Position numbers and translations under genes: made by a program
Source: a virus
Lineage: Duplodnaviria > Heunggongvirae > Uroviricota > Caudoviricetes
Reading direction: 5' to 3' (one strand)
Virus record (IMG/VR): IMGVR_UViG_3300046011_008537
DNA length: 64,000 nucleotides
The notes under the pieces: model-generated
The model's database searches: none
The model's input: the letters and a program-made list of their open reading frames with translations, nothing else
What the model was told of the DNA's origin: nothing
Shown: positions 1,436 through 29,260 of the stretch, one piece after another
Position numbering within the stretch: position 1 is the first letter of the stretch
Layout: each line of letters starts with the position of its first letter

Positions 1436-1463
1436 ATATAATACTACATATAAGGAGTTTTAA

Positions 1464-2210
1464 ATGGCTCAAGTTACAACAAGAGACGAATTAAAAGATT
1501 ATGCTCTAAGAAGATTAGGTGCTCCAGTTATCACTATCAATGTTGATGACGAACAATTAGAAGATAGAATTGATGATGCGATTCAATTCTATCAAGATTA
1601 TCATTATGATGCTACAGAATCTTTTTTCTGGAAGCACGAAATCACCCAACAAGACGTTGATCAAAAATATTTTACTATTGATCCGGGAATTTTAGGTATT
1701 ACTAGAATTTTTGCGTTAAATGAAACTATTACTAAAAATAATATGTTTGATTTAAGATATCAACTTCGTCTTCATGAATTATACGATTTTACATCAACAT
1801 CATATACTAATTTCTCCATTACAATGCAACATCTCCAAAATTTAAGTGAAATGTTTACTGGGGAAGTTCCAATTAGATTTCAACGTCATACTGGAAGATT
1901 ATATGTAGATTGGGGATGGGGTTCATCACAGATTCCAGTTGGGTCAATGGTTGTTGCTGAAGGATATAAAGCAATTGACCCAGAAACTTTTGAAAGCGTT
2001 TATAATGACCGTTGGCTAAAAGAATATGTTACCGCATTGTTTAAACGTCAATGGGGCGATAATATGAAAAAGTTTGGCGGTATTCAGCTTCCAGGTGGAT
2101 TAACTTTAAATGGTAAAGAAACTTTTGATGAAGCAATATCAGATATACAAAGATTAGAAAATGAAATGCAAGATAGATATGAATTGCCAGTTCAATTTTT
2201 AGTTGGATAA
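1464..2210 (+). CDS. 13: neck protein gp13-like
   Basis: Position in the conserved 13-14-15-16-17 block; late promoter and RBS AAGGAG. N-terminus ELKDYALRRLGAPVI resembles T4 gp13. Confidence 0.55.
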   Translation: MAQVTTRDELKDYALRRLGAPVITINVDDEQLEDRIDDAIQFYQDYHYDATESFFWKHEITQQDVDQKYFTIDPGILGITRIFALNETITKNNMFDLRYQLRLHELYDFTSTSYTNFSITMQHLQNLSEMFTGEVPIRFQRHTGRLYVDWGWGSSQIPVGSMVVAEGYKAIDPETFESVYNDRWLKEYVTALFKRQWGDNMKKFGGIQLPGGLTLNGKETFDEAISDIQRLENEMQDRYELPVQFLVG

Positions 2211-2215
2211 TTATT

Positions 2216-3082
2216 ATGCCAAGTAAATATTTTCAAAATTATGGTAAAGCAGCAGTCGAGATAAATTTAATCGAGGATCTCTACAACGAGGCGATAAACA
2301 TTCAAGGCTTCAGTGGGTACTATATTCCAAATTCGAACGTTGAAGGACGAGATTTAATCTATGGAGACGATCCTTTAAAGCAGTTTGACGACGCATATAA
2401 AATGGATATGTATTTGGTTAATACAATGGATTATGGAGACGAACAAGACTTTTTCTCGAAATTTGGATTAGAAGTAAGAAATCAAACTAAAATTCAAATA
2501 TCGTTTCGTGAATTTATGAAACGAACAACTAAACAGTTTGAACGCCCAATAGAAGGTAATTTAATTTTTATACCGTTTTTTAAAGATTCTGGAGAATTAT
2601 TTGAAATTAAATTTGTAAATACATCCAAAGATTTATATACTTTAGGTAGAGTTAGACCTTTCTATTATGAATTATCTCTTGAACCATTTAAATATAATGA
2701 CGAAAGTTTGGATACTGGTATTGATTCTATTGATATGATTGAGGTTCTTGAAGCATATAAAACTATTTTAGATGTTGGAGCGGGTACTGGTAATTATACT
2801 ATTGGAGAAATAATTTATCAAGGTAATGCTAATAATAAAGTTGCTTATGGTGAAGTTACTGCATGGGATAGCGCAAACTCTATTGTAACTATAATGAATA
2901 ATAGTGGAGAATTTTCTAATACAGCAGGATATATTTATGGCGCCAATAGTAATGCACAATATTTATTAACAACTATTGATGCTAGAGTTCATGAATCTCA
3001 ATTTGATAATATACCTATTTTCGATGAAGTCGTTGATTTTATTGATACTTCTGAAGGTTTTGGTAGTTTAAAATACAAATAA
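2216..3082 (+). CDS. 14: neck protein gp14-like
   Basis: Synteny between 13 and 15; 288 aa. Confidence 0.5.
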   Translation: MPSKYFQNYGKAAVEINLIEDLYNEAINIQGFSGYYIPNSNVEGRDLIYGDDPLKQFDDAYKMDMYLVNTMDYGDEQDFFSKFGLEVRNQTKIQISFREFMKRTTKQFERPIEGNLIFIPFFKDSGELFEIKFVNTSKDLYTLGRVRPFYYELSLEPFKYNDESLDTGIDSIDMIEVLEAYKTILDVGAGTGNYTIGEIIYQGNANNKVAYGEVTAWDSANSIVTIMNNSGEFSNTAGYIYGANSNAQYLLTTIDARVHESQFDNIPIFDEVVDFIDTSEGFGSLKYK

Positions 3083-3094
3083 GGTAAAAAAGAT

Positions 3095-4054
3095 ATGAGT
3101 TCATATAGATTACAATCAATAAGAAAAACTACTATAGCATTTGCTAGTCTATTTAAAGACATTCCATTAATAAAATATGACGATCAAGGGCGCGAATCAG
3201 AAAGAATAATTGTTCCAATTATTTATGGCGATAAAGAAAAATATGTAAAACGGTTAGACATTTCGCATGAAAAAGTACAAATAACATTACCTAGAATTGA
3301 ATATGGTTTAACATCAATGGTTTATGATGTAGATCGTAAATTAAATTCAGCAAATAAATTAATGGGTTGTGCTGCAGCTGGAGATATGTATATTAATTCT
3401 CCAATTCCATATAATTTTAATTTAGAGTTAGTGTTATATACTAGAAATATTGAAGATGCCAATCAAATAATGGAGTATATTTTATCGCATTTTACTCCAG
3501 ATTATAATATAAAAATTGTTATGGTTCCAGAAGCAGGTATCGTCAAAACTATACCAATAACATATAACGGCGAATCTGAAGAAGAAGATTCCACTGGATC
3601 GTACGATTCTCCAGTTAGGTCTGTGTTTAGAACATTAACATTTACTGCCAGAAGTTTTATTTACCAACCTCCATTAGAATATAAACCAATTTTACAAGCA
3701 AATACATTTGTTTATATACCAAGCCCAATTATGAGTTATACGTTAACTGATGGAACTGGATACTTTACGAAAGGAGAAAGCGTATTCCAGGGTTATTCTT
3801 ATGATAGAGCTTCAGCAAGAGGAAGTGTTGTAACTTGGAATGCTAATAACTTGATATTAACTCTTGATACTGTTGTTGGAACATTCGTTGCCAACTCAAT
3901 TATAACTAATTTAACTGGATCGGCTCAGTATATTATTGCTGAAACTCCAAATAAAGGATTAGCTTATGATACTGGCGTTACGCCAACTCCAAACACATTC
4001 CCAGTTGTTGGACCATATACAGTAAATCAATCTAACTTGGATTATACAACGTAA
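3095..4054 (+). CDS. 15: tail sheath stabiliser / tail completion gp15-like
   Basis: Synteny immediately upstream of the terminase small subunit; 319 aa. Confidence 0.5.
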   Translation: MSSYRLQSIRKTTIAFASLFKDIPLIKYDDQGRESERIIVPIIYGDKEKYVKRLDISHEKVQITLPRIEYGLTSMVYDVDRKLNSANKLMGCAAAGDMYINSPIPYNFNLELVLYTRNIEDANQIMEYILSHFTPDYNIKIVMVPEAGIVKTIPITYNGESEEEDSTGSYDSPVRSVFRTLTFTARSFIYQPPLEYKPILQANTFVYIPSPIMSYTLTDGTGYFTKGESVFQGYSYDRASARGSVVTWNANNLILTLDTVVGTFVANSIITNLTGSAQYIIAETPNKGLAYDTGVTPTPNTFPVVGPYTVNQSNLDYTT

Positions 4055-4056
4055 TT

Positions 4057-4494
4057 ATGACATCTAAATTTAATAAAACAATGGAGGAAATATTTAATGT
4101 TCCTTCATTGGTGAACGAAGAAGAAACTGAATTTGCAGAATTTTTACCTGCAGAACAATCAACTCATGATTTATCTACTTTATTAGATCACGATTTAAAA
4201 ACTGATTATGAAAAAACTAGAGAAAGTATTGATTCGTTAATTGCAAAAGGAACTGAAGCTATTGATGATATGTTGGCAATTGCTAGGCAATCAGAAAAAG
4301 CTCGCGATTTTGAAGTTGCTGGCAATATGATAAAAACTGTTGTTGATGCATCAAAAGAATTACTTGAAGTTCAAAAGAAAATGCGCGATATTACAGGTAA
4401 AAAAGAAAACGTCACTCAAAATATTAAAAATGCAGTTTTTGTTGGTTCTACTAAAGATTTAATACGATCTATTAAAAACGAGAATAATGAATGA
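4057..4494 (+). CDS. 16: terminase small subunit gp16
   Basis: 145 aa. C-terminal segment IKNAVFVGSTKDLIRSI resembles T4 gp16 IQNATVFMGSPTELMDEI. 4-nt overlap with gene 17. Confidence 0.7.
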   Translation: MTSKFNKTMEEIFNVPSLVNEEETEFAEFLPAEQSTHDLSTLLDHDLKTDYEKTRESIDSLIAKGTEAIDDMLAIARQSEKARDFEVAGNMIKTVVDASKELLEVQKKMRDITGKKENVTQNIKNAVFVGSTKDLIRSIKNENNE

Positions 4495-5399
4495 TTGATT
4501 TTGAGGGTAGCAATAAGTTATATTATAGAGATAATCCTAATCTAAGAAGAGCGGGTATTGAAAATTGGGAATTCGATCAACATCAAACAGATGAACTTAG
4601 AAAATGTATTAATGACCCAATATACTTTATTCGTAATTATGTAAAAATTATTAATCTTGATGAAGGTCTTGTCTATTTTGATATGCACGACTATCAAGAA
4701 GAAATGGTTCAAGCATTTCATGAAAATAGATTTTCTATTGTAAGGATTGGCCGGCAATCAGGTAAAACCACAACATCTGTTGGTTATCTTTTATGGTTAT
4801 CATTATTTACCGAAAATTATAATATTGCTATTACAGCTAATAAAAAATCATTAGCTGTTGAGATTCTTTCTCGATATCAATTAGCCTATGAAAATTTACC
4901 TATGTGGTTACAACAAGGTATTGTTATATGGAATAAAGGTAGTATTGAGTTAGAAAATGGTTCAAAAATGTTAGCAGCTTCTACTGCTGCTAGTTCCGTT
5001 CGTGGTGGATCATTTAATCTTGTATTTATGGACGAATTTGCTCACGTTCATAATAACTTAGCCGAAGAATTTTTTACTTCAACATATCCTGTAATTTCCT
5101 CAGGTAAAACAACAAAAATTATTATTGTATCTACTCCTCGTGGTATGAATTTATACTACAAAATGTGGATGGATGCAGTAAGTAAAAAGAGTGATTATAA
5201 AGCTGTTGATATTCATTGGTCTAGAGTTCCAGGGCGCGATGAAAACTGGAAAGAAACTACGATTAGAAATACTTCTGCTCGTCAGTTTAACCAAGAATTT
5301 GCATGCGTTACTGGGGATACAATAGTTGAAATACAGGATGAATTTGGTAATGAACAAAAAATTACAATGCGTAAATTACATTCGCTTATGAATTCCTAA
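4491..5399 (+). CDS. 17: terminase large subunit N-terminal fragment (ATPase domain, about 271 aa) fused to a short split-intein N-fragment (about 31 aa)
   Basis: Walker A GRQSGKTT and T4 gp17-like N-terminus. Ends with CVTGDTIVEIQDEFGNEQKITMRKLHSLMNS then stop; CVTGDT is a canonical intein block A at a Cys +1 junction. Confidence 0.85.
   Translation: MIDFEGSNKLYYRDNPNLRRAGIENWEFDQHQTDELRKCINDPIYFIRNYVKIINLDEGLVYFDMHDYQEEMVQAFHENRFSIVRIGRQSGKTTTSVGYLLWLSLFTENYNIAITANKKSLAVEILSRYQLAYENLPMWLQQGIVIWNKGSIELENGSKMLAASTAASSVRGGSFNLVFMDEFAHVHNNLAEEFFTSTYPVISSGKTTKIIIVSTPRGMNLYYKMWMDAVSKKSDYKAVDIHWSRVPGRDENWKETTIRNTSARQFNQEFACVTGDTIVEIQDEFGNEQKITMRKLHSLMNS
5304..5396 (+). mobile_element. split-intein N-terminal fragment (IntN, 31 codons) at the C-terminus of TerL-N
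   Basis: Cys codon at 5304. Block A motif C-V-T-G-D-T-I-V. Stop codon at 5397-5399. Confidence 0.75.
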
Positions 5400-5412
5400 G
5401 AATTCATAATAT

Positions 5413-5420
5413 TATAAATA
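5413..5420 (+). promoter_or_regulatory. late promoter TATAAATA upstream of the HNH gene inside the fractured terminase gene
   Basis: Exact TATAAATA. RBS TAGGAG at 5433-5438. Confidence 0.5.
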
Positions 5421-5446
5421 ATTATATTTATAATAGGAGCATATTT

Positions 5447-6043
5447 ATGTCAAAACATAGAAAAATATGGGAAGAGCATTATGGTAGTATTCCAAAAGAT
5501 TATGAAGGAAGAACATATGAAATACACCATATAGACGGTAATAGGAATAATAATGATATTACCAATTTGAAATGCGTATCAATATGCGAGCATTTTAATA
5601 TTCATCAAGCGCAAGAGGAATTCGGAGCTTGCGCTATGATAATGAAACGTATGGATATGTCAACAGAACAAATTTCTAATATACAAAAAGGAATTAAAAG
5701 ACCTGGAATTGGAGGAGTAAAAAAAGGAACTATTCCATGGAATAAAGGTAAAAAAATATTTGTTTCTGAAGATTTAAAAATAAAACGTTCTAAAAATAGC
5801 ACTGGGGAATTAAATTCTAAAGCAAAATTAAAAGAAAACCAAGTTATAGAAATATTAGAATTATATTTTAGTAGACCAAAATTAGAGTCAGAAGGAATAA
5901 CACAAAGAAACGGTAGAGTTGATTCATATGAATGGAGTTTTTCTAAGTTTTATGCAAATACTTATGAATTAACTCCAGCAGCTTTAATGCGATTATTAAC
6001 CAAAAAAAGTTGGAAACATGTTTGGGAAAAATACAAAATATAA
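5447..6043 (+). CDS. free-standing HNH homing endonuclease between the two terminase halves
   Basis: HNH motif EIHHIDGNRNNNDITNL...CVSICEHFNIH. Different frame from both terminase halves. Overlaps start of the IntC ORF. Confidence 0.8.
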   Translation: MSKHRKIWEEHYGSIPKDYEGRTYEIHHIDGNRNNNDITNLKCVSICEHFNIHQAQEEFGACAMIMKRMDMSTEQISNIQKGIKRPGIGGVKKGTIPWNKGKKIFVSEDLKIKRSKNSTGELNSKAKLKENQVIEILELYFSRPKLESEGITQRNGRVDSYEWSFSKFYANTYELTPAALMRLLTKKSWKHVWEKYKI

Positions 6044-6344
6044 AATAAAAACTATAAATGGATGGGAAAAGTTTAGAGGTGTAAATAAATTACATAAAAA
6101 ACGAACCGTTCAGATTATAACACAAAATAACTGTTTTCTTGATTGTACTATAGATCATAAAATAAAAACTCTTGATGGTTATAAAGAAATTAGCGAATTA
6201 TCTGATTTAGATTTTATAGAGACTATTCATGGATTTTCTAAAATTGATTTTATTTCTGAAAATTTTGAATTAGAAGAAGTTTTTGATGTCATAGATGCGG
6301 GAAACGATAAATGTTATTATACTAATGGAATTTTATCGCATAAT
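6018..6344 (+). mobile_element. split-intein C-terminal fragment (IntC)
   Basis: Terminal HN followed by Cys. Long IntC with short IntN makes an atypical split intein. Confidence 0.75.
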
Positions 6345-7247
6345 TGCGAATTTTTAGGTTCTACAAATACATTAATCGATGGATCAAAATTACAAACTCT
6401 TGTTGCAGTAGATCCATTAGATACTGATGATGAAATATTTGCTGGAATAACAATTCCAAATGAAATGGATGTATTTATTCCTCCAGTTAAAGAATCATTT
6501 GATGATGAAACTAAAAAACAAATAGATAAAGACCATATCTATGCAATGACTGTTGACGTTTCAGAGGGGAAAAACTTAGATTATGCTGCATTTTCCATTT
6601 TTGATGTATCAACAATTCCATATACACAAGTAGCTACATATAGAAATAATCAATTACATCCAATGTTATTTCCAGATATTATTAAAATGGCTGGAGAATA
6701 TTATAATAATGCATATGTATTAATTGAGGTTAATAATAATCCAACAGTAGCAGATACTTTATTTCAAGATTTAGAATATGAAAATGTATTAAAAGTTTAT
6801 GCAGGAAACAAAAAAGCTCAACAAATAAGCGAGAACGGTAAAGCAACACAAAATGGCGTAAATATGAGTCCATTAGTCAAACGTGTTGGCTGTACCACAT
6901 TAAAGACTTTAATTGAAACTGATAAATTACGAATTAATTCCAGCGAAACTATATATGAATTAACTCGATTTATTGCAACAAATAACTCATTTGCAGCTGA
7001 AGAAGGAGCTAATGATGATTTAGCGATGACTTTGGTTATTTTTGCTTGGTTATCAACTCAAAAATTATTTATAGAATTATCTTCTACAGATATCCGTAAA
7101 AGATTACAAATAGAAAATAATTATATTAAAGAAGATGATATTGACGTTCCACCTATGCCGCAATTTAGTAATCCATTAATGGATAGATTTACATTAGAAG
7201 ATGGTGATTTATGGGAAGTTGTTGAACCAGCAGGATTTTATTATTAA
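6018..7247 (+). CDS. 17: split-intein C-fragment (about 109 aa) fused to terminase large subunit C-terminal fragment (nuclease domain, 300 aa)
   Basis: Hint blocks: B-like TIDHKIKTLDG, F/G block VIDAGNDKCYYTNGILSHN immediately followed by Cys (C-extein +1 at nt 6345). Same reading frame as TerL-N. Confidence 0.85.
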   Translation: MFGKNTKYKIKTINGWEKFRGVNKLHKKRTVQIITQNNCFLDCTIDHKIKTLDGYKEISELSDLDFIETIHGFSKIDFISENFELEEVFDVIDAGNDKCYYTNGILSHNCEFLGSTNTLIDGSKLQTLVAVDPLDTDDEIFAGITIPNEMDVFIPPVKESFDDETKKQIDKDHIYAMTVDVSEGKNLDYAAFSIFDVSTIPYTQVATYRNNQLHPMLFPDIIKMAGEYYNNAYVLIEVNNNPTVADTLFQDLEYENVLKVYAGNKKAQQISENGKATQNGVNMSPLVKRVGCTTLKTLIETDKLRINSSETIYELTRFIATNNSFAAEEGANDDLAMTLVIFAWLSTQKLFIELSSTDIRKRLQIENNYIKEDDIDVPPMPQFSNPLMDRFTLEDGDLWEVVEPAGFYY

Positions 7248-7264
7248 ACATAAACGCTGAAAAT

Positions 7265-7272
7265 TATAAATA
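7265..7272 (+). promoter_or_regulatory. late promoter TATAAATA upstream of gene 18
   Basis: Exact TATAAATA. RBS AAGGAG at 7306. Confidence 0.55.
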
Positions 7273-7319
7273 CCTCTATGAAAACTGATTTTCTATTTTT
7301 ATAACAAGGAGTACAATTT

Positions 7320-9440
7320 ATGGGGTTTCAATTATCACCTGGAGTAAATGTATCAGAAATTGATTTAACTAACGTAGTTCCAGGAGTTAGTTCATCAATA
7401 GGAGCATTTGCCGGACAATTTAGCTGGGGACCAGCAGGTATCAGAACATTAGTAGATTCAGAAAATAGATTAGTTTCTACTTTCGGCAAACCTACAAATG
7501 AAAATTACGCATCATTCTTTACTGCTGCTAATTTCTTAGCGTATACAAACAATCTTAGAGTTGTTAGAGCTATAGACAATTCTAATACATTTAACTCAAC
7601 ATGTATTTCAGAATTTATTAATTTAAATTCTTTAACTGCAAATACTCGTTCAGGGAATACAGAAGTAGTATTTAACCAAAGCATTGGATCTTATTTGAGT
7701 AGCGGAGATAAATTTACATTAACTACAGTTGACGGTCCATTTATTTTGACTGCAAATACAGTTAACGGAAATGTCGTAAATGTTGTTGCTAATATCGTTG
7801 GAGCAGCAAATGGAGCAATTGCAGTTTTACCTACGTCTCAAACAGATGTAAGTATTGCAAACGAAGAAGATTATGAATTAAATTTTGATGCAGGAACATA
7901 TTCTAAATTTGGTGCATTTTTTGGCCGTTATCCAAGCGATTTAGGGAACTCATTAAGTATTTCTGTATGTTCTTCTAATACCTCATTTAGTCAAACAGGA
8001 TTAACTGCAAATACAACATTAGGCTTGCCATCTGTAACATTAAACGTTGGATATGCTAATACATTCTTGACTATTGGCGATATAGTAAAAGTTGGAGGAA
8101 CCGATTATCCTATTTCTGGATTTACTTCTACTTCTGCGACAAATACAGTTTTAGCAGTTTCTAAAAATGGAGCAGCAACTGCAACTAATATTACGGCATC
8201 AACAAGATGGGCGTATGCAGACCAATTTGACTCAAAACCTACTTCATCAGCATATGCTATTGATAGTAAAGGTGCGGAAAACGATGAATTACATATAATT
8301 GTAATTGATACTGATGGAAAAATTACAGGCGAAAAAGGAACTATATTAGAAAAATTTGCTCATGTATCAAAAGCGCAAGACGCTAAAACAGATGACGGCT
8401 CGCCAAGCTATTATGTAACTAAAATTTTAAATGAATCAAAATATATCTATGTTGCTAACCATTTAACTGGTTCGACAAATTGGGGTGATATGCTTGATAA
8501 TGGACTAGTTTACGATAAATTAACAAATTATTATCATAAATTGGGAAGAGGAACTAATGTTGCTCCATCTGCAGGAGATTTACAATTAGCATACGATAAA
8601 TTTAGTAATGCTGATGAAGTTGATATTTCTTTATTGTTATCTGGCGCTGCTGATGCTACTTTAGCTAATCATGTATTAGATATCGTAAATCAAAGAAGAG
8701 ATTGTGTTGCGTTTGTTTCTCCATTAAGAGCTGATGCGGTTGATTCAGTTAATTTAGATAACATTATTGAATATAGAAATGCATTAACTCCATCAACTTC
8801 TTATTCAGTATTTGATTCTGGATGGAAATATCAATTCGATAAATATAACAACAAATATCGTTATGTTCCATTAAATGGTGATACTGCGGGTTTATGTGCT
8901 AGAACTGATAATGTAAGAGATCCATGGTTTTCTCCTGCTGGATTTAATCGCGGTCAAATCTTAAATGCAATTAAATTGTCATGGAATCCAACTAAAGCTC
9001 AAAGAGATGAATTGTACAAAAATGGAATTAATCCAGTTGTTGCATTCCCAGGAGAAGGAATTATCCTTTATGGCGATAAAACAATGCAAATGAAACCATC
9101 TGCATTTGACAGAATTAATGTTCGTAGATTGTTTATTGTTCTTGAAAAAGCTATTGCAATTGCAGCAAAATACTCTCTATTTGAATTCAACGATTCGTTT
9201 ACAAGAGCGCAATTTATATCTATGGTTGAACCATTCTTAAGAGATGTAAAAGGACGTAGAGGTATCTATGATTTCTCGGTAATTTGCGATGAAACAAATA
9301 ATACTGCTGAAGTTATTGATACAAATAGATTCGTTGGTGATATTTACATTAAACCAGCTAGATCTATCAACTTTATCCAGTTGAATTTCGTAGCAGTTCG
9401 TACTGGTGTTGACTTTACTGAAATTGCAGGTAAATTCTAA
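7320..9440 (+). CDS. 18: tail sheath protein gp18
   Basis: 706 aa. Position and size; followed by tube protein gene. Confidence 0.85.
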   Translation: MGFQLSPGVNVSEIDLTNVVPGVSSSIGAFAGQFSWGPAGIRTLVDSENRLVSTFGKPTNENYASFFTAANFLAYTNNLRVVRAIDNSNTFNSTCISEFINLNSLTANTRSGNTEVVFNQSIGSYLSSGDKFTLTTVDGPFILTANTVNGNVVNVVANIVGAANGAIAVLPTSQTDVSIANEEDYELNFDAGTYSKFGAFFGRYPSDLGNSLSISVCSSNTSFSQTGLTANTTLGLPSVTLNVGYANTFLTIGDIVKVGGTDYPISGFTSTSATNTVLAVSKNGAATATNITASTRWAYADQFDSKPTSSAYAIDSKGAENDELHIIVIDTDGKITGEKGTILEKFAHVSKAQDAKTDDGSPSYYVTKILNESKYIYVANHLTGSTNWGDMLDNGLVYDKLTNYYHKLGRGTNVAPSAGDLQLAYDKFSNADEVDISLLLSGAADATLANHVLDIVNQRRDCVAFVSPLRADAVDSVNLDNIIEYRNALTPSTSYSVFDSGWKYQFDKYNNKYRYVPLNGDTAGLCARTDNVRDPWFSPAGFNRGQILNAIKLSWNPTKAQRDELYKNGINPVVAFPGEGIILYGDKTMQMKPSAFDRINVRRLFIVLEKAIAIAAKYSLFEFNDSFTRAQFISMVEPFLRDVKGRRGIYDFSVICDETNNTAEVIDTNRFVGDIYIKPARSINFIQLNFVAVRTGVDFTEIAGKF

Positions 9441-27072: not shown

Positions 27073-27147
27073 GCCTTTTTAGTATAATGGCTATTACAGT
27101 TGACTTGTAATCTTCAGATCTCAGTTCGATTCTGGGAAGAGGCTCCA
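27073..27147 (+). tRNA. probable tRNA-Thr (anticodon TGT) with weak anticodon stem (two U-U mismatches); encoded CCA
   Basis: Acceptor GCCTTTT/AAGAGGC, D-loop AATGGCTA, loop CUUGUAA, canonical T-arm CTCAG-TTCGATT-CTGGG, CCA. Confidence 0.5.
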
Positions 27148-27155
27148 AATTATTA

Positions 27156-27232
27156 CTCCCATTAGCTCAGTCTGGTAGAGCGATCCGTTTGGGGCGGATA
27201 GGTCGGCAGTTCGAATCTGTCATGGGAGACCA
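27156..27232 (+). tRNA. tRNA-Pro (anticodon TGG), encoded CCA
   Basis: Full cloverleaf: CTCCCAT/ATGGGAG acceptor, GCTC/GAGC D-stem, ATCCG-TTTGGGG-CGGAT, GGCAG-TTCGAAT-CTGTC. Confidence 0.85.
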
Positions 27233-27233
27233 A

Positions 27234-27866
27234 ATGTTTATTGAGAATTATATTATGATTATAGGTTTACTTGGTTTTATTGGTTCCGGAAAAGGAACTG
27301 CTGGCGATATTTTAGTAGAAAATGATTTTACTGCTTTATCCTTTGCTGGTTCGTTAAAGGATGCAGTATCTTCTATTTTTGGTTGGGATAGAGCTCTATT
27401 AGAAGGTGATACTGAAGAATCGCGAGTTTTTCGTGAAACTGTTGATAATTTTTGGTCAGTTAAATTTGGTAAATCTATAACGCCTAGATATATTTTACAG
27501 TATTTTGGTACAGAAGTTTGTAGAAATAATTTACTTGATAGTATTTGGGTTGATTCTCTAGAAAGAAAAATTCAACAGTATGATAATGTAGTTATTACTG
27601 ATGTTAGATTTAAAAATGAAATTAGTTTTTTAAGGTCTATTGGGGCTAAATTTATACATATTGACAGAAAAGAAACGCGACCTGAATGGTATGGATTTCT
27701 TGACTCAGTAGATAGACCTGTATTTGTAGCTTATGCTGAAGCTAGAGATATTCATAAATCTGAATATGAATGGTATAGTAATCCTCATATTGACTATATA
27801 ATTCAAAATAATGGAACTCTACAAGAATTAGAGCTAAAAATATTAGATGTAATTGTAAATAATTAA
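27234..27866 (+). CDS. 1: dNMP kinase gp1 (start 2 nt after tRNA-Pro; alternative start 27255 gives exact T4 gp1 P-loop register)
   Basis: P-loop MIIGLLGFIGSGKGTAGD aligns with T4 gp1 MKLIFLSGVKRSGKDTTAD. ORF-track start at 27189 overlaps tRNA-Pro and is rejected. Confidence 0.65.
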   Translation: MFIENYIMIIGLLGFIGSGKGTAGDILVENDFTALSFAGSLKDAVSSIFGWDRALLEGDTEESRVFRETVDNFWSVKFGKSITPRYILQYFGTEVCRNNLLDSIWVDSLERKIQQYDNVVITDVRFKNEISFLRSIGAKFIHIDRKETRPEWYGFLDSVDRPVFVAYAEARDIHKSEYEWYSNPHIDYIIQNNGTLQELELKILDVIVNN

Positions 27867-27868
27867 AT

Positions 27869-28540
27869 ATGATTTCTAAATATCTAACACAAATACAAAA
27901 TGACGGGTTACAAATAGATGTTGTTTATGATATTGGCGCTCATCAAGGTAGTTGGTCTAGTTATTTAAAATCCAACGTTTTACCTGTTAGCGATTTTTAT
28001 TTATTTGAAGCTGACTCAATACATCAGTCTTCTTTAGAAGAATTAGGTTTTCCATATTTTATTGGAGTATTAAGTAATCCTGGGAGAAAATTTGTTGAGT
28101 TTTATAACACAAATTCAACTGATTGTAGCACTGGTAGTTCTTATTATAAAGAAAATACTGTTTATTATGATAATTTTTCTGCAGTTAAATTTCCTTGTAC
28201 AACGTTAGAATCACTTATAATTGAATATGGTTTACCAATACCTAATCTACTAAAAATAGATACGCAAGGTTCTGAATTAGATATTTTGCGCGGCGTTGAA
28301 TCATATATAGATAATATTGATTTGATATATTTAGAATGCCCTATAATTAAATATAACATTCATGCTCCATCTATTCAAGATTATATAGATTATATGAAAG
28401 AAAAAGGATTTATTCCTACTGAAGTAATGGAAATCCATAGATATGAACATGTATTATTACAAATAGATATTATGTTTATTAATTGCGCAACAAAAGAATG
28501 GCTTTATGGTCCAACTGAATTTAGTCGACCTTTAGTTTAA
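27869..28540 (+). CDS. FkbM-family SAM-dependent methyltransferase
   Basis: DIGAHQGSW ... LLKIDTQGSELDIL ... LIYLE pattern typical of FkbM-domain methyltransferases. Confidence 0.55.
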   Translation: MISKYLTQIQNDGLQIDVVYDIGAHQGSWSSYLKSNVLPVSDFYLFEADSIHQSSLEELGFPYFIGVLSNPGRKFVEFYNTNSTDCSTGSSYYKENTVYYDNFSAVKFPCTTLESLIIEYGLPIPNLLKIDTQGSELDILRGVESYIDNIDLIYLECPIIKYNIHAPSIQDYIDYMKEKGFIPTEVMEIHRYEHVLLQIDIMFINCATKEWLYGPTEFSRPLV

Positions 28541-28548
28541 AAGATAAT

Positions 28549-28623
28549 TCCCTAGTAGCTCAGTGGTAGAGCTGACGGCTGTTAACCGTCCGGTCGGTGG
28601 TTCGAACCCATCCTAGGGAGCCA
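28549..28623 (+). tRNA. tRNA-Asn (anticodon GTT), encoded CCA
   Basis: TCCCTAG/CTAGGGA acceptor, loop CUGUUAA, T-arm GGTGG-TTCGAAC-CCATC. Confidence 0.85.
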
Positions 28624-28640
28624 AATAAGACCCATTAGGT

Positions 28641-28714
28641 GTGACTATGACGGAATTGGTAGACGTCCTCGATTGTGATTCGAGATTTTGTGGGTTCAAG
28701 TCCCACTAGTCACC
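28641..28714 (+). tRNA. tRNA-His (anticodon GTG); no encoded G-1 or CCA; flanked by 9-bp inverted repeat extending the acceptor stem
   Basis: GTGACTA/TAGTCAC acceptor, loop UUGUGAU, T-arm GTGGG-TTCAAGT-CCCAC. CCCATTAGG at 28631-28639 pairs with CCTAATGGG at 28715-28723. Confidence 0.8.
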
Positions 28715-28737
28715 CCTAATGGGTTTAAAAAATAATT

Positions 28738-28812
28738 GTCGCTATCGTCTATCGGTTAGGACACAAGATTTTCATTCTTGTAAGCGGGGTTCGATTCCCC
28801 GTAGCGACGCCA
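28738..28812 (+). tRNA. tRNA-Glu (anticodon TTC), encoded CCA
   Basis: GTCGCTA/TAGCGAC acceptor, loop UUUUCAU, T-arm CGGGG-TTCGATT-CCCCG. Confidence 0.85.
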
Positions 28813-28817
28813 ATATT

Positions 28818-28894
28818 GGGTAGGTAGTTTAATTGGATAAAACATGTGCCTCCAAAACACAAAGATGAGAGTTCAAATCTTTCTCTGCCCGCCA
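28818..28894 (+). tRNA. tRNA-Trp (anticodon CCA), encoded CCA
   Basis: GGGTAGG/TCTGCCC acceptor with G-U pairs, loop CUCCAAA, T-arm GAGAG-TTCAAAT-CTTTC. Confidence 0.75.
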
Positions 28895-28916
28895 ATTAAT
28901 TTAATACGAGGAAGTT

Positions 28917-29099
28917 ATGAAAACTTTATTTTTGATTATTTTATGTTTATTTGTAACAGGTTGTGCTAGTTCTGGTGATTTAGCTAAATTACAGGATGAT
29001 CATGCTGCTTTAACTGCAAAGGTTGAATCTTTGACAAATTCAAATAAACAGTGTGATAAAAAATTAGATAATTTCTTCAAAAAAGTTCAGAAGAAATAA
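28917..29099 (+). CDS. small Lpp-like coiled-coil lipoprotein embedded in the tRNA cluster
   Basis: Signal peptide + lipobox VTGC. Heptad-like SSGDLAKLQDDHAALTAKVESLTN resembling Braun lipoprotein. RBS GAGGAAG. Confidence 0.5.
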   Translation: MKTLFLIILCLFVTGCASSGDLAKLQDDHAALTAKVESLTNSNKQCDKKLDNFFKKVQKK

Positions 29100-29104
29100 T
29101 ATAT

Positions 29105-29180
29105 GCCCCTTTAGCTCAATGGTTAGAGCGTCCGACTCATAATCGGTTGGTTCTAGGTTCAAGTCCTAGGAGGGGCACCA
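29105..29180 (+). tRNA. tRNA with CAT anticodon (elongator Met or Ile2/lysidine type; not initiator-like), encoded CCA
   Basis: GCCCCTT/GAGGGGC acceptor, loop CUCAUAA, T-arm CTAGG-TTCAAGT-CCTAG. G1-C72 paired. Confidence 0.8.
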
Positions 29181-29186
29181 AATATT

Positions 29187-29260
29187 GCGGGATTAGTTTA
29201 ATGGTAGAACAGCAGATTTCCAATCTCCTAGTGAGGGTTCGATTCCCTTATCCCGCTCCA
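29187..29260 (+). tRNA. tRNA-Gly (anticodon TCC), encoded CCA
   Basis: GCGGGAT/ATCCCGC acceptor, loop UUUCCAA, T-arm GAGGG-TTCGATT-CCCTT. Confidence 0.8.

Follow-up and report, generated by a model that had tools for sequence, protein, structure and literature searches.

The terminase large subunit (TerL) gene of an uncultured T4-like phage was examined in IMGVR_UViG_3300046011_008537, a stretch of DNA of 64,000 nucleotides (nt) that we refer to as the window and whose positions serve for all coordinates given here. The gene is present as two open reading frames (ORFs) with a third ORF between them. The first, TerL-N, occupies 4491-5399 on the plus strand (frame 0) and encodes 302 residues, 271 of host protein (the N-extein) followed by 31 of an intein, and the last, TerL-C, occupies 6018-7247 (plus strand, also frame 0) and encodes 409 residues, 109 of intein followed by 300 of C-extein. 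The intervening ORF, at 5447-6043 on the plus strand in frame 2, encodes a 198-residue HNH endonuclease. In Pfam searches the TerL-N ORF matched Terminase_6N (1e-21) and the TerL-C ORF matched Terminase_6C (3.8e-13), and the tblastn match of TerL-C to cyanophage gp17 starts at residue 110. The N-extein, which carries the ATPase domain (4491..5303, plus strand, 271 codons), is colinear with the intein-free TerL proteins P0005 and P0135, and the C-extein, which carries the nuclease domain and begins with a Cys at position +1 (CEFLGS; 6345..7247, plus strand, 300 codons and a stop), is colinear with P0005. What lies between the exteins is an in-frame insertion of 1041 nt (5304..6344, plus strand) made up of an N-terminal intein fragment (IntN), a spacer, the HNH gene, and a C-terminal intein fragment (IntC). 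We consider it very likely that this is a fractured T4-like TerL gene, in which the insertion is a composite selfish element that combines an atypically split class-1 intein with a free-standing HNH homing endonuclease.

IntN (5304..5399, plus strand) comprises 31 codons, from CVTGDTIVEI to LMNS, that are missing from the intein-free allele, and it is closed by a TAA stop at 5397-5399; as the tail of TerL-N it reads CVTGDTIVEIQDEFGNEQKITMRKLHSLMNS. IntC (6018..6344, plus strand) comprises 109 codons, from MFGKNTKYKIK to ILSHN, and its first 26 nt are shared with the 3' end of the HNH gene. A first-pass annotation of this DNA had proposed that TerL is encoded as two same-frame ORFs fractured by a split intein, and the coordinates, the Pfam domains, the insertion defined by BLASTN, and the profile matches to the Cat intein described below all agree with this. 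It had the halves separated by a stop codon, where the gap is really 618 nt long with 19 frame-0 stops, so that a single sequencing error cannot restore one ORF. It had also taken the halves for the ATPase and nuclease portions of the enzyme. The N-extein aligns with T4 gp17 through T353, which puts the insertion site at T353|A354, ~6 residues ahead of the end of the ATPase-domain crystal construct (2o0h); the match to the RB49 nuclease-domain structure lies farther downstream. Given a split so close to the end of the ATPase construct, the two products do roughly correspond to the ATPase and nuclease domains.

Chimeras occur in environmental assemblies, and a split gene recovered from one might result from an error of assembly or sequencing, or be a pseudogene in decay. 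To this explanation we give almost no credence. Besides its 19 in-frame stops, the gap holds a complete foreign gene, and at least 23 independently assembled contigs from different samples (Joint Genome Institute (JGI) and Logan data) encode the exact TerL-C protein and carry the same three proteins; all six of the places shown among these contigs have the same three-gene layout. The exact TerL-N, HNH, and TerL-C proteins are also present in the public collection, the same three occur on 5 IMG/VR contigs, and the layout is kept in relatives down to ~49% TerL-C identity. All parts are moreover under purifying selection, the host gene being more strongly constrained than the selfish parts: in comparisons with the related loci L015 and L004, the ratio of nonsynonymous to synonymous substitution rates (dN/dS) was 0.09-0.15 for IntN, 0.22 for IntC, and 0.26-0.36 for HNH, compared with 0.03-0.10 for the exteins.

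Insertion Boundaries and Empty-site Alleles

The limits of the element can be read from relatives that lack it. When aligned by BLASTN with the intein-free loci L001-L003, the window matched up to 5307 and again from 6344, and the insertion is accordingly 5304-6344; the 5-nt ambiguity where the two matches overlap arises because TGCG is read at both junctions. An uninterrupted TerL recovered by homology search, P0005, has 571 residues and is 98% identical to the C-extein of the window. Joining TerL-N residues 1-271 to TerL-C residues 110-409 gives a predicted spliced TerL of 571 residues, the length that had been anticipated from the ORFs alone, and the natural intein-free TerL P0135 agrees with this prediction at 570 of its 571 residues. 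The one difference falls at residue 271, the -1 position of the insertion site (window 5301-5303): occupied alleles in the sublineage have Ala (GCA), and each of the five empty alleles inspected has Gly (GGT). The 120 nt of upstream flank from -153 to -33 show no mismatch (100% identity) between the window and the empty allele, and the -1 codon differs at two bases; this Ala/Gly difference could reflect either optimization of splicing or immunity of the target site to the endonuclease. The empty TerL site in L001 reads ...GAATTTGGT|TGCGAATTT..., and the predicted tryptic peptide across the junction of the spliced TerL is QFNQEFACEFLGSTNTLIDGSK. At the other end of the element, a palindrome, TCGCATAATTGCGA, with a T-run after it, lies across the S-H-N|C-E junction codons (window 6336-6349) and was flagged by a terminator scan.

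The Split Intein and Its Catalytic Residues

Both halves of the intein match the Cat intein from end to end. A profile of 24 IntN tails matched CatN (6dsl_A) over its full length, with the EFE extein residues included (E = 4.9e-10), and an IntC profile of 33 relatives matched CatC (6dsl_B) over positions 1-114, from the initiating Met-Phe to the splice junction (E = 1.4e-24). The IntC profile matches 16 solved intein chains in all, among them gp41-1 (6.5e-13), DnaX, DnaB, NrdJ-1, and VidaL. When IntN and IntC of the window were fused and used as a single sequence, they too matched CatC (PDB 6DSL chain B, "Consensus engineered intein CatC") at E = 4.7e-8. The surroundings of the intein are similar as well, the insertion site reading QEFA|C...HN|CEFLGS and the Cat chains carrying EFE ahead of the intein and CE behind it. 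With halves of 31 and 109 residues that both align with Cat over their whole length, the window has the short IntN and long IntC of the AceL-TerL type, as had been proposed.

In block A (CVTGDT), the nucleophile Cys1 is invariant in the 24 relatives, as is Gly4, and Thr6 is nearly so. Block B of IntC is C43-T44-I-D-H47, in which His47 is invariant and position 44 is Ser or Thr in nearly all of the 33 relatives. Asp90 of IntC is intact and conserved, the C-terminal Ser107-His108-Asn109 is invariant in the same 33, and the +1 extein residue is Cys in the window and Cys or Thr in relatives. The first-pass description of a 31-residue tail with block A and a head of about 109 residues with block B, followed by a Cys+1, is thereby confirmed, with Cys1, His47, and the His-Asn pair all conserved; its one slip is the Cys at the N-terminal junction, which it numbered +1 and which is residue 1 of the intein.

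Several observations weigh against reading the element as a working split intein. The window's own IntC scores E = 0.24 with Pfam Intein_splicing, below the Pfam cut-off; AlphaFold2 modeling of the fused IntN and IntC (as a single sequence, with no alignment) gave a predicted local distance difference test score (pLDDT) of 37; the -1 extein residue is Ala here and Glu in most relatives; and the ribosome-binding site of the IntC-TerL-C ORF is weak, consisting of GGA only. Pfam run on the separate ORFs likewise gave no Hint or intein match at E ≤ 0.1. Across the family, Intein_splicing is detected in 33 of 33 members at E ≤ 1 (best 9.6e-8), and given the weak score of the window IntC, the intein assignment rests on the family profile. 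The first-pass annotation had suggested aligning both fragments with Hint-domain and TerL profiles; the TerL domains and a significant match of the family profile to solved inteins were obtained, and Intein_splicing on the window IntC fell short. On the profile matches, homology of this intein to the AceL-TerL/GOS-TerL/Cat family of atypically split class-1 inteins is supported, and we infer that IntN and IntC together would adopt a Hint fold.

The TerL halves are probably rejoined by the split intein in this phage, because the intein is homologous to inteins that trans-splice, its catalytic residues are intact, and it is under purifying selection. A different possibility is that the two fragments make up a non-covalent two-subunit enzyme, in which the intein halves act only as a dimerization handle and no splicing takes place. 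A precedent is NrdA of phage Aeh1, which is documented as split by an HNH homing endonuclease with no splicing involved (cited in PMC2677866), and with the split at a domain boundary the separate domains of TerL might still cooperate. However, the splicing nucleophiles and the His-Asn pair, which dimerization would not need, are invariant in 33 diverged relatives, the dN/dS of the intein halves is low, and homologous TerL inteins splice in vitro (PMC11766414). We therefore regard an unspliced enzyme as quite unlikely and favor rejoining of the halves by protein trans-splicing.

A Free-standing HNH Endonuclease Gene between the Halves

The product of the intervening ORF matches HNH_3 in Pfam (2e-14), its top PHROG is "intron-like DNA endonuclease" (1e-26), and His-27, His-28, Asn-36, Asn-40, His-49, and His-53 are invariant in 28 homologues. 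Altogether 320 homologues were found, with lengths of 138-211 residues among the 120 listed. The AlphaFold2 model of the protein has a pLDDT of 83, and its top Foldseek match, a weak one (E = 0.38), is I-HmuI, the intron-encoded HNH homing endonuclease of phage SPO1 (PDB 1U3E), which is alike in having an HNH core and then a DNA-binding extension. The window protein consists of an N-terminal HNH_3 catalytic domain and a helical C-terminal part that probably binds DNA.

Presence of the HNH gene is polymorphic at a fixed site in TerL. The gene is found in the window, L015, and L004 and is absent from L001-L003; in the intein-free relatives, whose TerL exteins are 98% identical, it is missing, and the genes for the small terminase (TerS), TerL, and the tail sheath are adjacent. 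This distribution bears on what the protein does. HNH proteins assist terminases in HK97-like phages, where they are encoded beside the terminase genes, and an HNH gene inside the terminase operon, furnished with a late promoter, might encode a packaging cofactor of the same kind and not a homing endonuclease. Against such a role stand the complete absence of the gene from relatives with nearly identical TerL exteins, the combination of HNH_3 with a long C-terminal domain that is typical of homing enzymes, the PHROG assignment, and the presence of an unrelated GIY-YIG endonuclease at the same position in cultured phages. We find a packaging cofactor highly improbable and treat the protein as a homing endonuclease in what follows.

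In IMG/VR the HNH alignment picked out 80 loci, and in ~76 of these the HNH gene lies directly between the TerL N-extein and the IntC plus TerL C-extein. This count is taken from the tblastn table, and the other figures for these loci cover the parseable ones, some HNH and IntC variants being missed by parsing. In the parseable loci, IntN has 24-34 residues and always begins with Cys, IntC has 104-110 residues, the spacer is usually 30-59 nt long and mostly contains the box TATAAATA, and the start of IntC overlaps the end of HNH by 8-43 nt. The exceptions, L059 (2950-5261) and L060, carry a free HNH-family gene directly upstream of an intein-less, uninterrupted TerL of 556 residues, with the junction QEFN|TMFLGS; this arrangement could represent a stage with the endonuclease beside, but outside, its target gene. 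In L101 and L102 (about 1447-3001), the TerL N-extein match and the HNH gene lie ~1.5 kb apart, a distance that suggests a further insertion in the N half. The relative encoding P0006 has, between its TerL halves, an ORF (L006:260-676) of only 138 residues without a Pfam match; it corresponds to the C-terminal two-thirds of the HNH protein (P0227) and may be a decaying endonuclease gene or the result of a wrong start call.

Expression Signals and RNA Structure in the Spacer

The spacer from the TerL-N stop to the HNH start is 47 nt long. It contains a T4-type late-promoter box, TATAAATA (5413..5420, plus strand), 27 nt upstream of the HNH start, and a ribosome-binding site, AGGAG (5435..5439, plus strand), read from the sequence 7 nt before the HNH ATG. 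The total count of the box in the window is no higher than chance; its placement is non-random. Of 11 plus-strand copies, 10 are intergenic, lying 27-138 nt upstream of genes that include the tail sheath gene, in a window with a non-coding share of 7.8% (binomial P ∼9e-11). Because the copies are so consistently intergenic and upstream of genes, reading the box at 5413-5420 as a late promoter is credible. The first-pass annotation had given the HNH gene, in its different frame, a late promoter and ribosome-binding site of its own, and the HNH_3 match, the box, and the AGGAG bear this out.

Two perfect hairpins, both on the plus strand and 100% complementary, take up much of the same region. 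The first (I19, 5386..5409) has a 10-bp stem and a CTAA loop and encloses the TerL-N stop, and the second (I13, 5410..5435) has an 11-bp stem and a 4-nt loop, holds the late-promoter box, and abuts the AGGAG. Compared with shuffled sequences, the fold of 5385-5450 has a z of -3.6. In related loci the TATAAATA box is kept in the same spacer in most parseable cases and the window hairpins are not; L004 has a different hairpin after the promoter box, and the fold of L008 is non-significant. A conserved RNA structure in the spacer was dropped as a candidate on account of these differing folds, leaving only the promoter box as a recurring feature.

The same region bears on whether the interruption might be removed from RNA. 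In Campylobacter phage vB_CcoM-IBB_35, a distant T4 relative, an intein together with an HNH (mobE-like) endonuclease gene likewise interrupts TerL, and its authors read the endonuclease as intron-borne (PMC3322345). By the same logic, the HNH gene of the window would sit in a self-splicing group I intron within a contiguous intein, and RNA splicing would restore the ORF. Rfam gave no family match on 5200-6400 at E ≤ 1, group I introns included, and on the whole window it found transfer RNAs (tRNAs) only. The 47 non-coding nt and the HNH/IntC overlap leave no room for an intron core, IntC opens with a conserved Met-Phe exactly at the start of CatC, and natural fragments of the AceL-TerL-type family trans-splice as separate proteins (PMC11766414). 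An intron at this site is thus extremely improbable, and we retain the reading of two separately translated TerL fragments joined at the protein level.

Distribution and Movement of the Element

Three types of allele are found at the TerL site, namely empty, with a contiguous intein, and split. Distances between HNH proteins track those between IntC sequences (Spearman 0.54, 0 of 500 permutations), and neither set tracks the exteins as closely. The similarities of intein and extein disagree, which points to the intein having moved horizontally. The co-variation and this disagreement together fit a composite element moving between TerL lineages. The contiguous form, with a mini-intein of 144 residues at the same TerL site, is represented by P0048-P0050; P0049 (708 residues) is encoded in L007 (5001-7127). 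The portal gene of L007 (9576-12127) has precomputed matches to Intein_splicing and HNH_3, suggestive of a classical intein that has an HNH domain embedded in it.

Other positions within TerL are also occupied. IntC-like heads occur on related TerL proteins (P0030, P0042, P0038, P0115, and P0097) at two further sites, one in the P-loop directly after GK (...SHN|TTxSV) and the other just before Walker B (...SHNC|VFLDEFA). In Campylobacter phage F341 (L013:1489-2817) the IntC junction reads ...SHNC|AFIDKW; this phage, and not IBB_35, is the Campylobacter phage that we examined, and with AFIDKW after its IntC the site looks like a different one in TerL. Judged from these junctions, TerL in these phages appears to be fractured at at least three positions.

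The split gene stands in a T4-type packaging and tail module (window 3095-9440) that comprises a gp15-like gene, TerS (4057-4494), TerL, and the tail sheath gene (7320-9440). Elsewhere the window contains a cluster of eight tRNAs (Thr, Pro, Asn, His, Glu, Trp, Met, and Gly) at 27073-29260, and the G+C content of the phage genome is 30%. Megablast of the locus against the phage genome collection returned zero matches, which indicates a phage lineage without a close cultured relative; the closest matches in that collection are cyanomyophages, at ~45% protein identity.

Comparison with Known Split Inteins and Fractured Genes

The properties of AceL-TerL, GOS-TerL, and Cat were taken from a review (PMC11766414) and from PDB entry names. 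These are atypically split TerL inteins, natural or consensus in origin, and each of them trans-splices in vitro; the IntN/IntC lengths are 25/104 for AceL-TerL (Cys1/Cys+1), 37/115 for GOS-TerL, and 30/104 for the consensus Cat (PMC11766414). The window intein shares with them the TerL host gene, the EF-x|C...HN|CEF extein context, the Cys1/Cys+1 class-1 chemistry, and an unusual split point behind the first strands of the fold that gives a short IntN and a long IntC, its 31/109 residues fitting the family range of ~25-37/~104-122. Its sequence is divergent, with an IntC only 32% identical to CatC, and its -1 residue is Ala in place of Glu. One IMG/VR locus, L039, is AceL-like: its IntC shares 66% identity with CatC, its IntN looks similar to that of AceL-TerL, and the same HNH family lies between its halves.

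Fractured genes were defined by Dassa et al. in 2009 (PMC2677866) from 27 original loci, which include one gp17-like terminase from Lake Gatun, the single case in that study with an unusual split point and a long IntC. The window resembles these loci in the same-strand order of N-host plus IntN, short spacer, free-standing endonuclease, and IntC plus C-host, in the overlapping frames, in the length of the spacer (27-51 nt there, 47 nt here), and in its spacer hairpins, such structures having been noted in the 5'-untranslated regions of the endonuclease genes of fractured genes (PMC2677866). Whereas the endonucleases of the original loci are GIY-YIG or Vsr-like, that of the window is HNH_3. Fracture of genes by HNH enzymes was only predicted as possible in that work (PMC2677866), and because HNH enzymes were thus anticipated, the HNH type is a variation compatible with membership among the fractured genes. 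The window differs further in that its locus is complete and stands in a 64-kb phage context, with empty-site and contiguous alleles available for comparison.

The fractured arrangement had been described at first pass as known almost only from metagenomes. This does not hold: tblastn with IntC against the phage genome collection gave 119 records, and the GenBank annotation of Aeromonas phage PX29 gives gene 17A an N-intein and gene 17B a "GIY-YIG endonuclease and C-intein." PX29 and Providencia phage PSTRCR_127 resemble the window in having an endonuclease between the halves at nearly the same TerL site (QEH|C...HN|CAEF), a short IntN (~35 residues), and a long IntC that starts M..NKKYKIKT, and a 122-residue query of the window IntC plus junction is ~32-37% identical to their sequences. 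Their endonuclease is SegE-like GIY-YIG, in contrast to the HNH of the window. In PX29 gene 17B (L012:2296-4095), the GIY-YIG endonuclease is annotated as one ORF, in the same frame, with IntC and TerL-C (compare L011:1792-2505). In Vibrio phage VP-1 (L014:346-2562), the TerL-N ORF ends in a fused GIY-YIG domain and also contains a second intein remnant, near the P-loop.

Proposed Mechanism

The homing of HNH into intein-free TerL, its cleavage target, and the details of expression are what we infer from the arrangement of the locus. Late in infection, TerL-N-IntN would be translated from read-through transcripts, and the HNH protein and IntC-TerL-C would be translated both from these and from transcripts initiated at the internal TATAAATA promoter, with the 26-nt overlap between the IntC start and the HNH stop possibly coupling translation of the latter two. 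The 31-residue IntN would then dock into the near-complete 109-residue IntC and so complete the Hint fold, allowing Cys1, the block-B Thr and His, the terminal His-Asn, and Cys+1 to carry out class-1 trans-splicing; Ala271 would be joined to Cys272, giving the normal 571-residue TerL. In mixed infections, HNH would cut intein-free TerL alleles, and repair from the occupied allele would copy the whole element.

It is conceivable, though unlikely, that the element has in addition been domesticated as a timing device, the nuclease half being made separately and gaining activity only once late trans-splicing has joined it to the ATPase half. A late promoter inside the element, an HNH stop that overlaps the start of IntC, and the long shared divergence of HNH and intein within the clade would all fit such a role. 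As regards the origin of the element, the empty, contiguous, and split-plus-HNH alleles of the clade, together with the free HNH gene of L059, could provide a natural series for the origin of split inteins by gene breaking or collaborative homing.

Implications

The locus is a real, ordinary, and well-preserved addition to a family that has already been described (in 2009) and for which biochemistry and a crystal structure are available, and the current understanding of inteins is unchanged by it. What sets it apart is the HNH-type endonuclease together with the divergent sequence of the intein. As a divergent natural split intein with a short IntN, its IntC being ~32% identical to the Cat consensus, it joins the small set used for protein labelling, and it might be orthogonal to the existing short-IntN split inteins. 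The comparative set assembled around it, with an empty allele that differs by one residue, contiguous 144-residue inteins, hundreds of HNH-bearing split loci, and GIY-YIG counterparts in cultured phages, may be of use in tracing how split inteins come to be associated with homing endonucleases and how both spread. For the phage itself, abundant, uncultured, and T4-like, the locus implies that protein trans-splicing may be needed to make an essential packaging motor.

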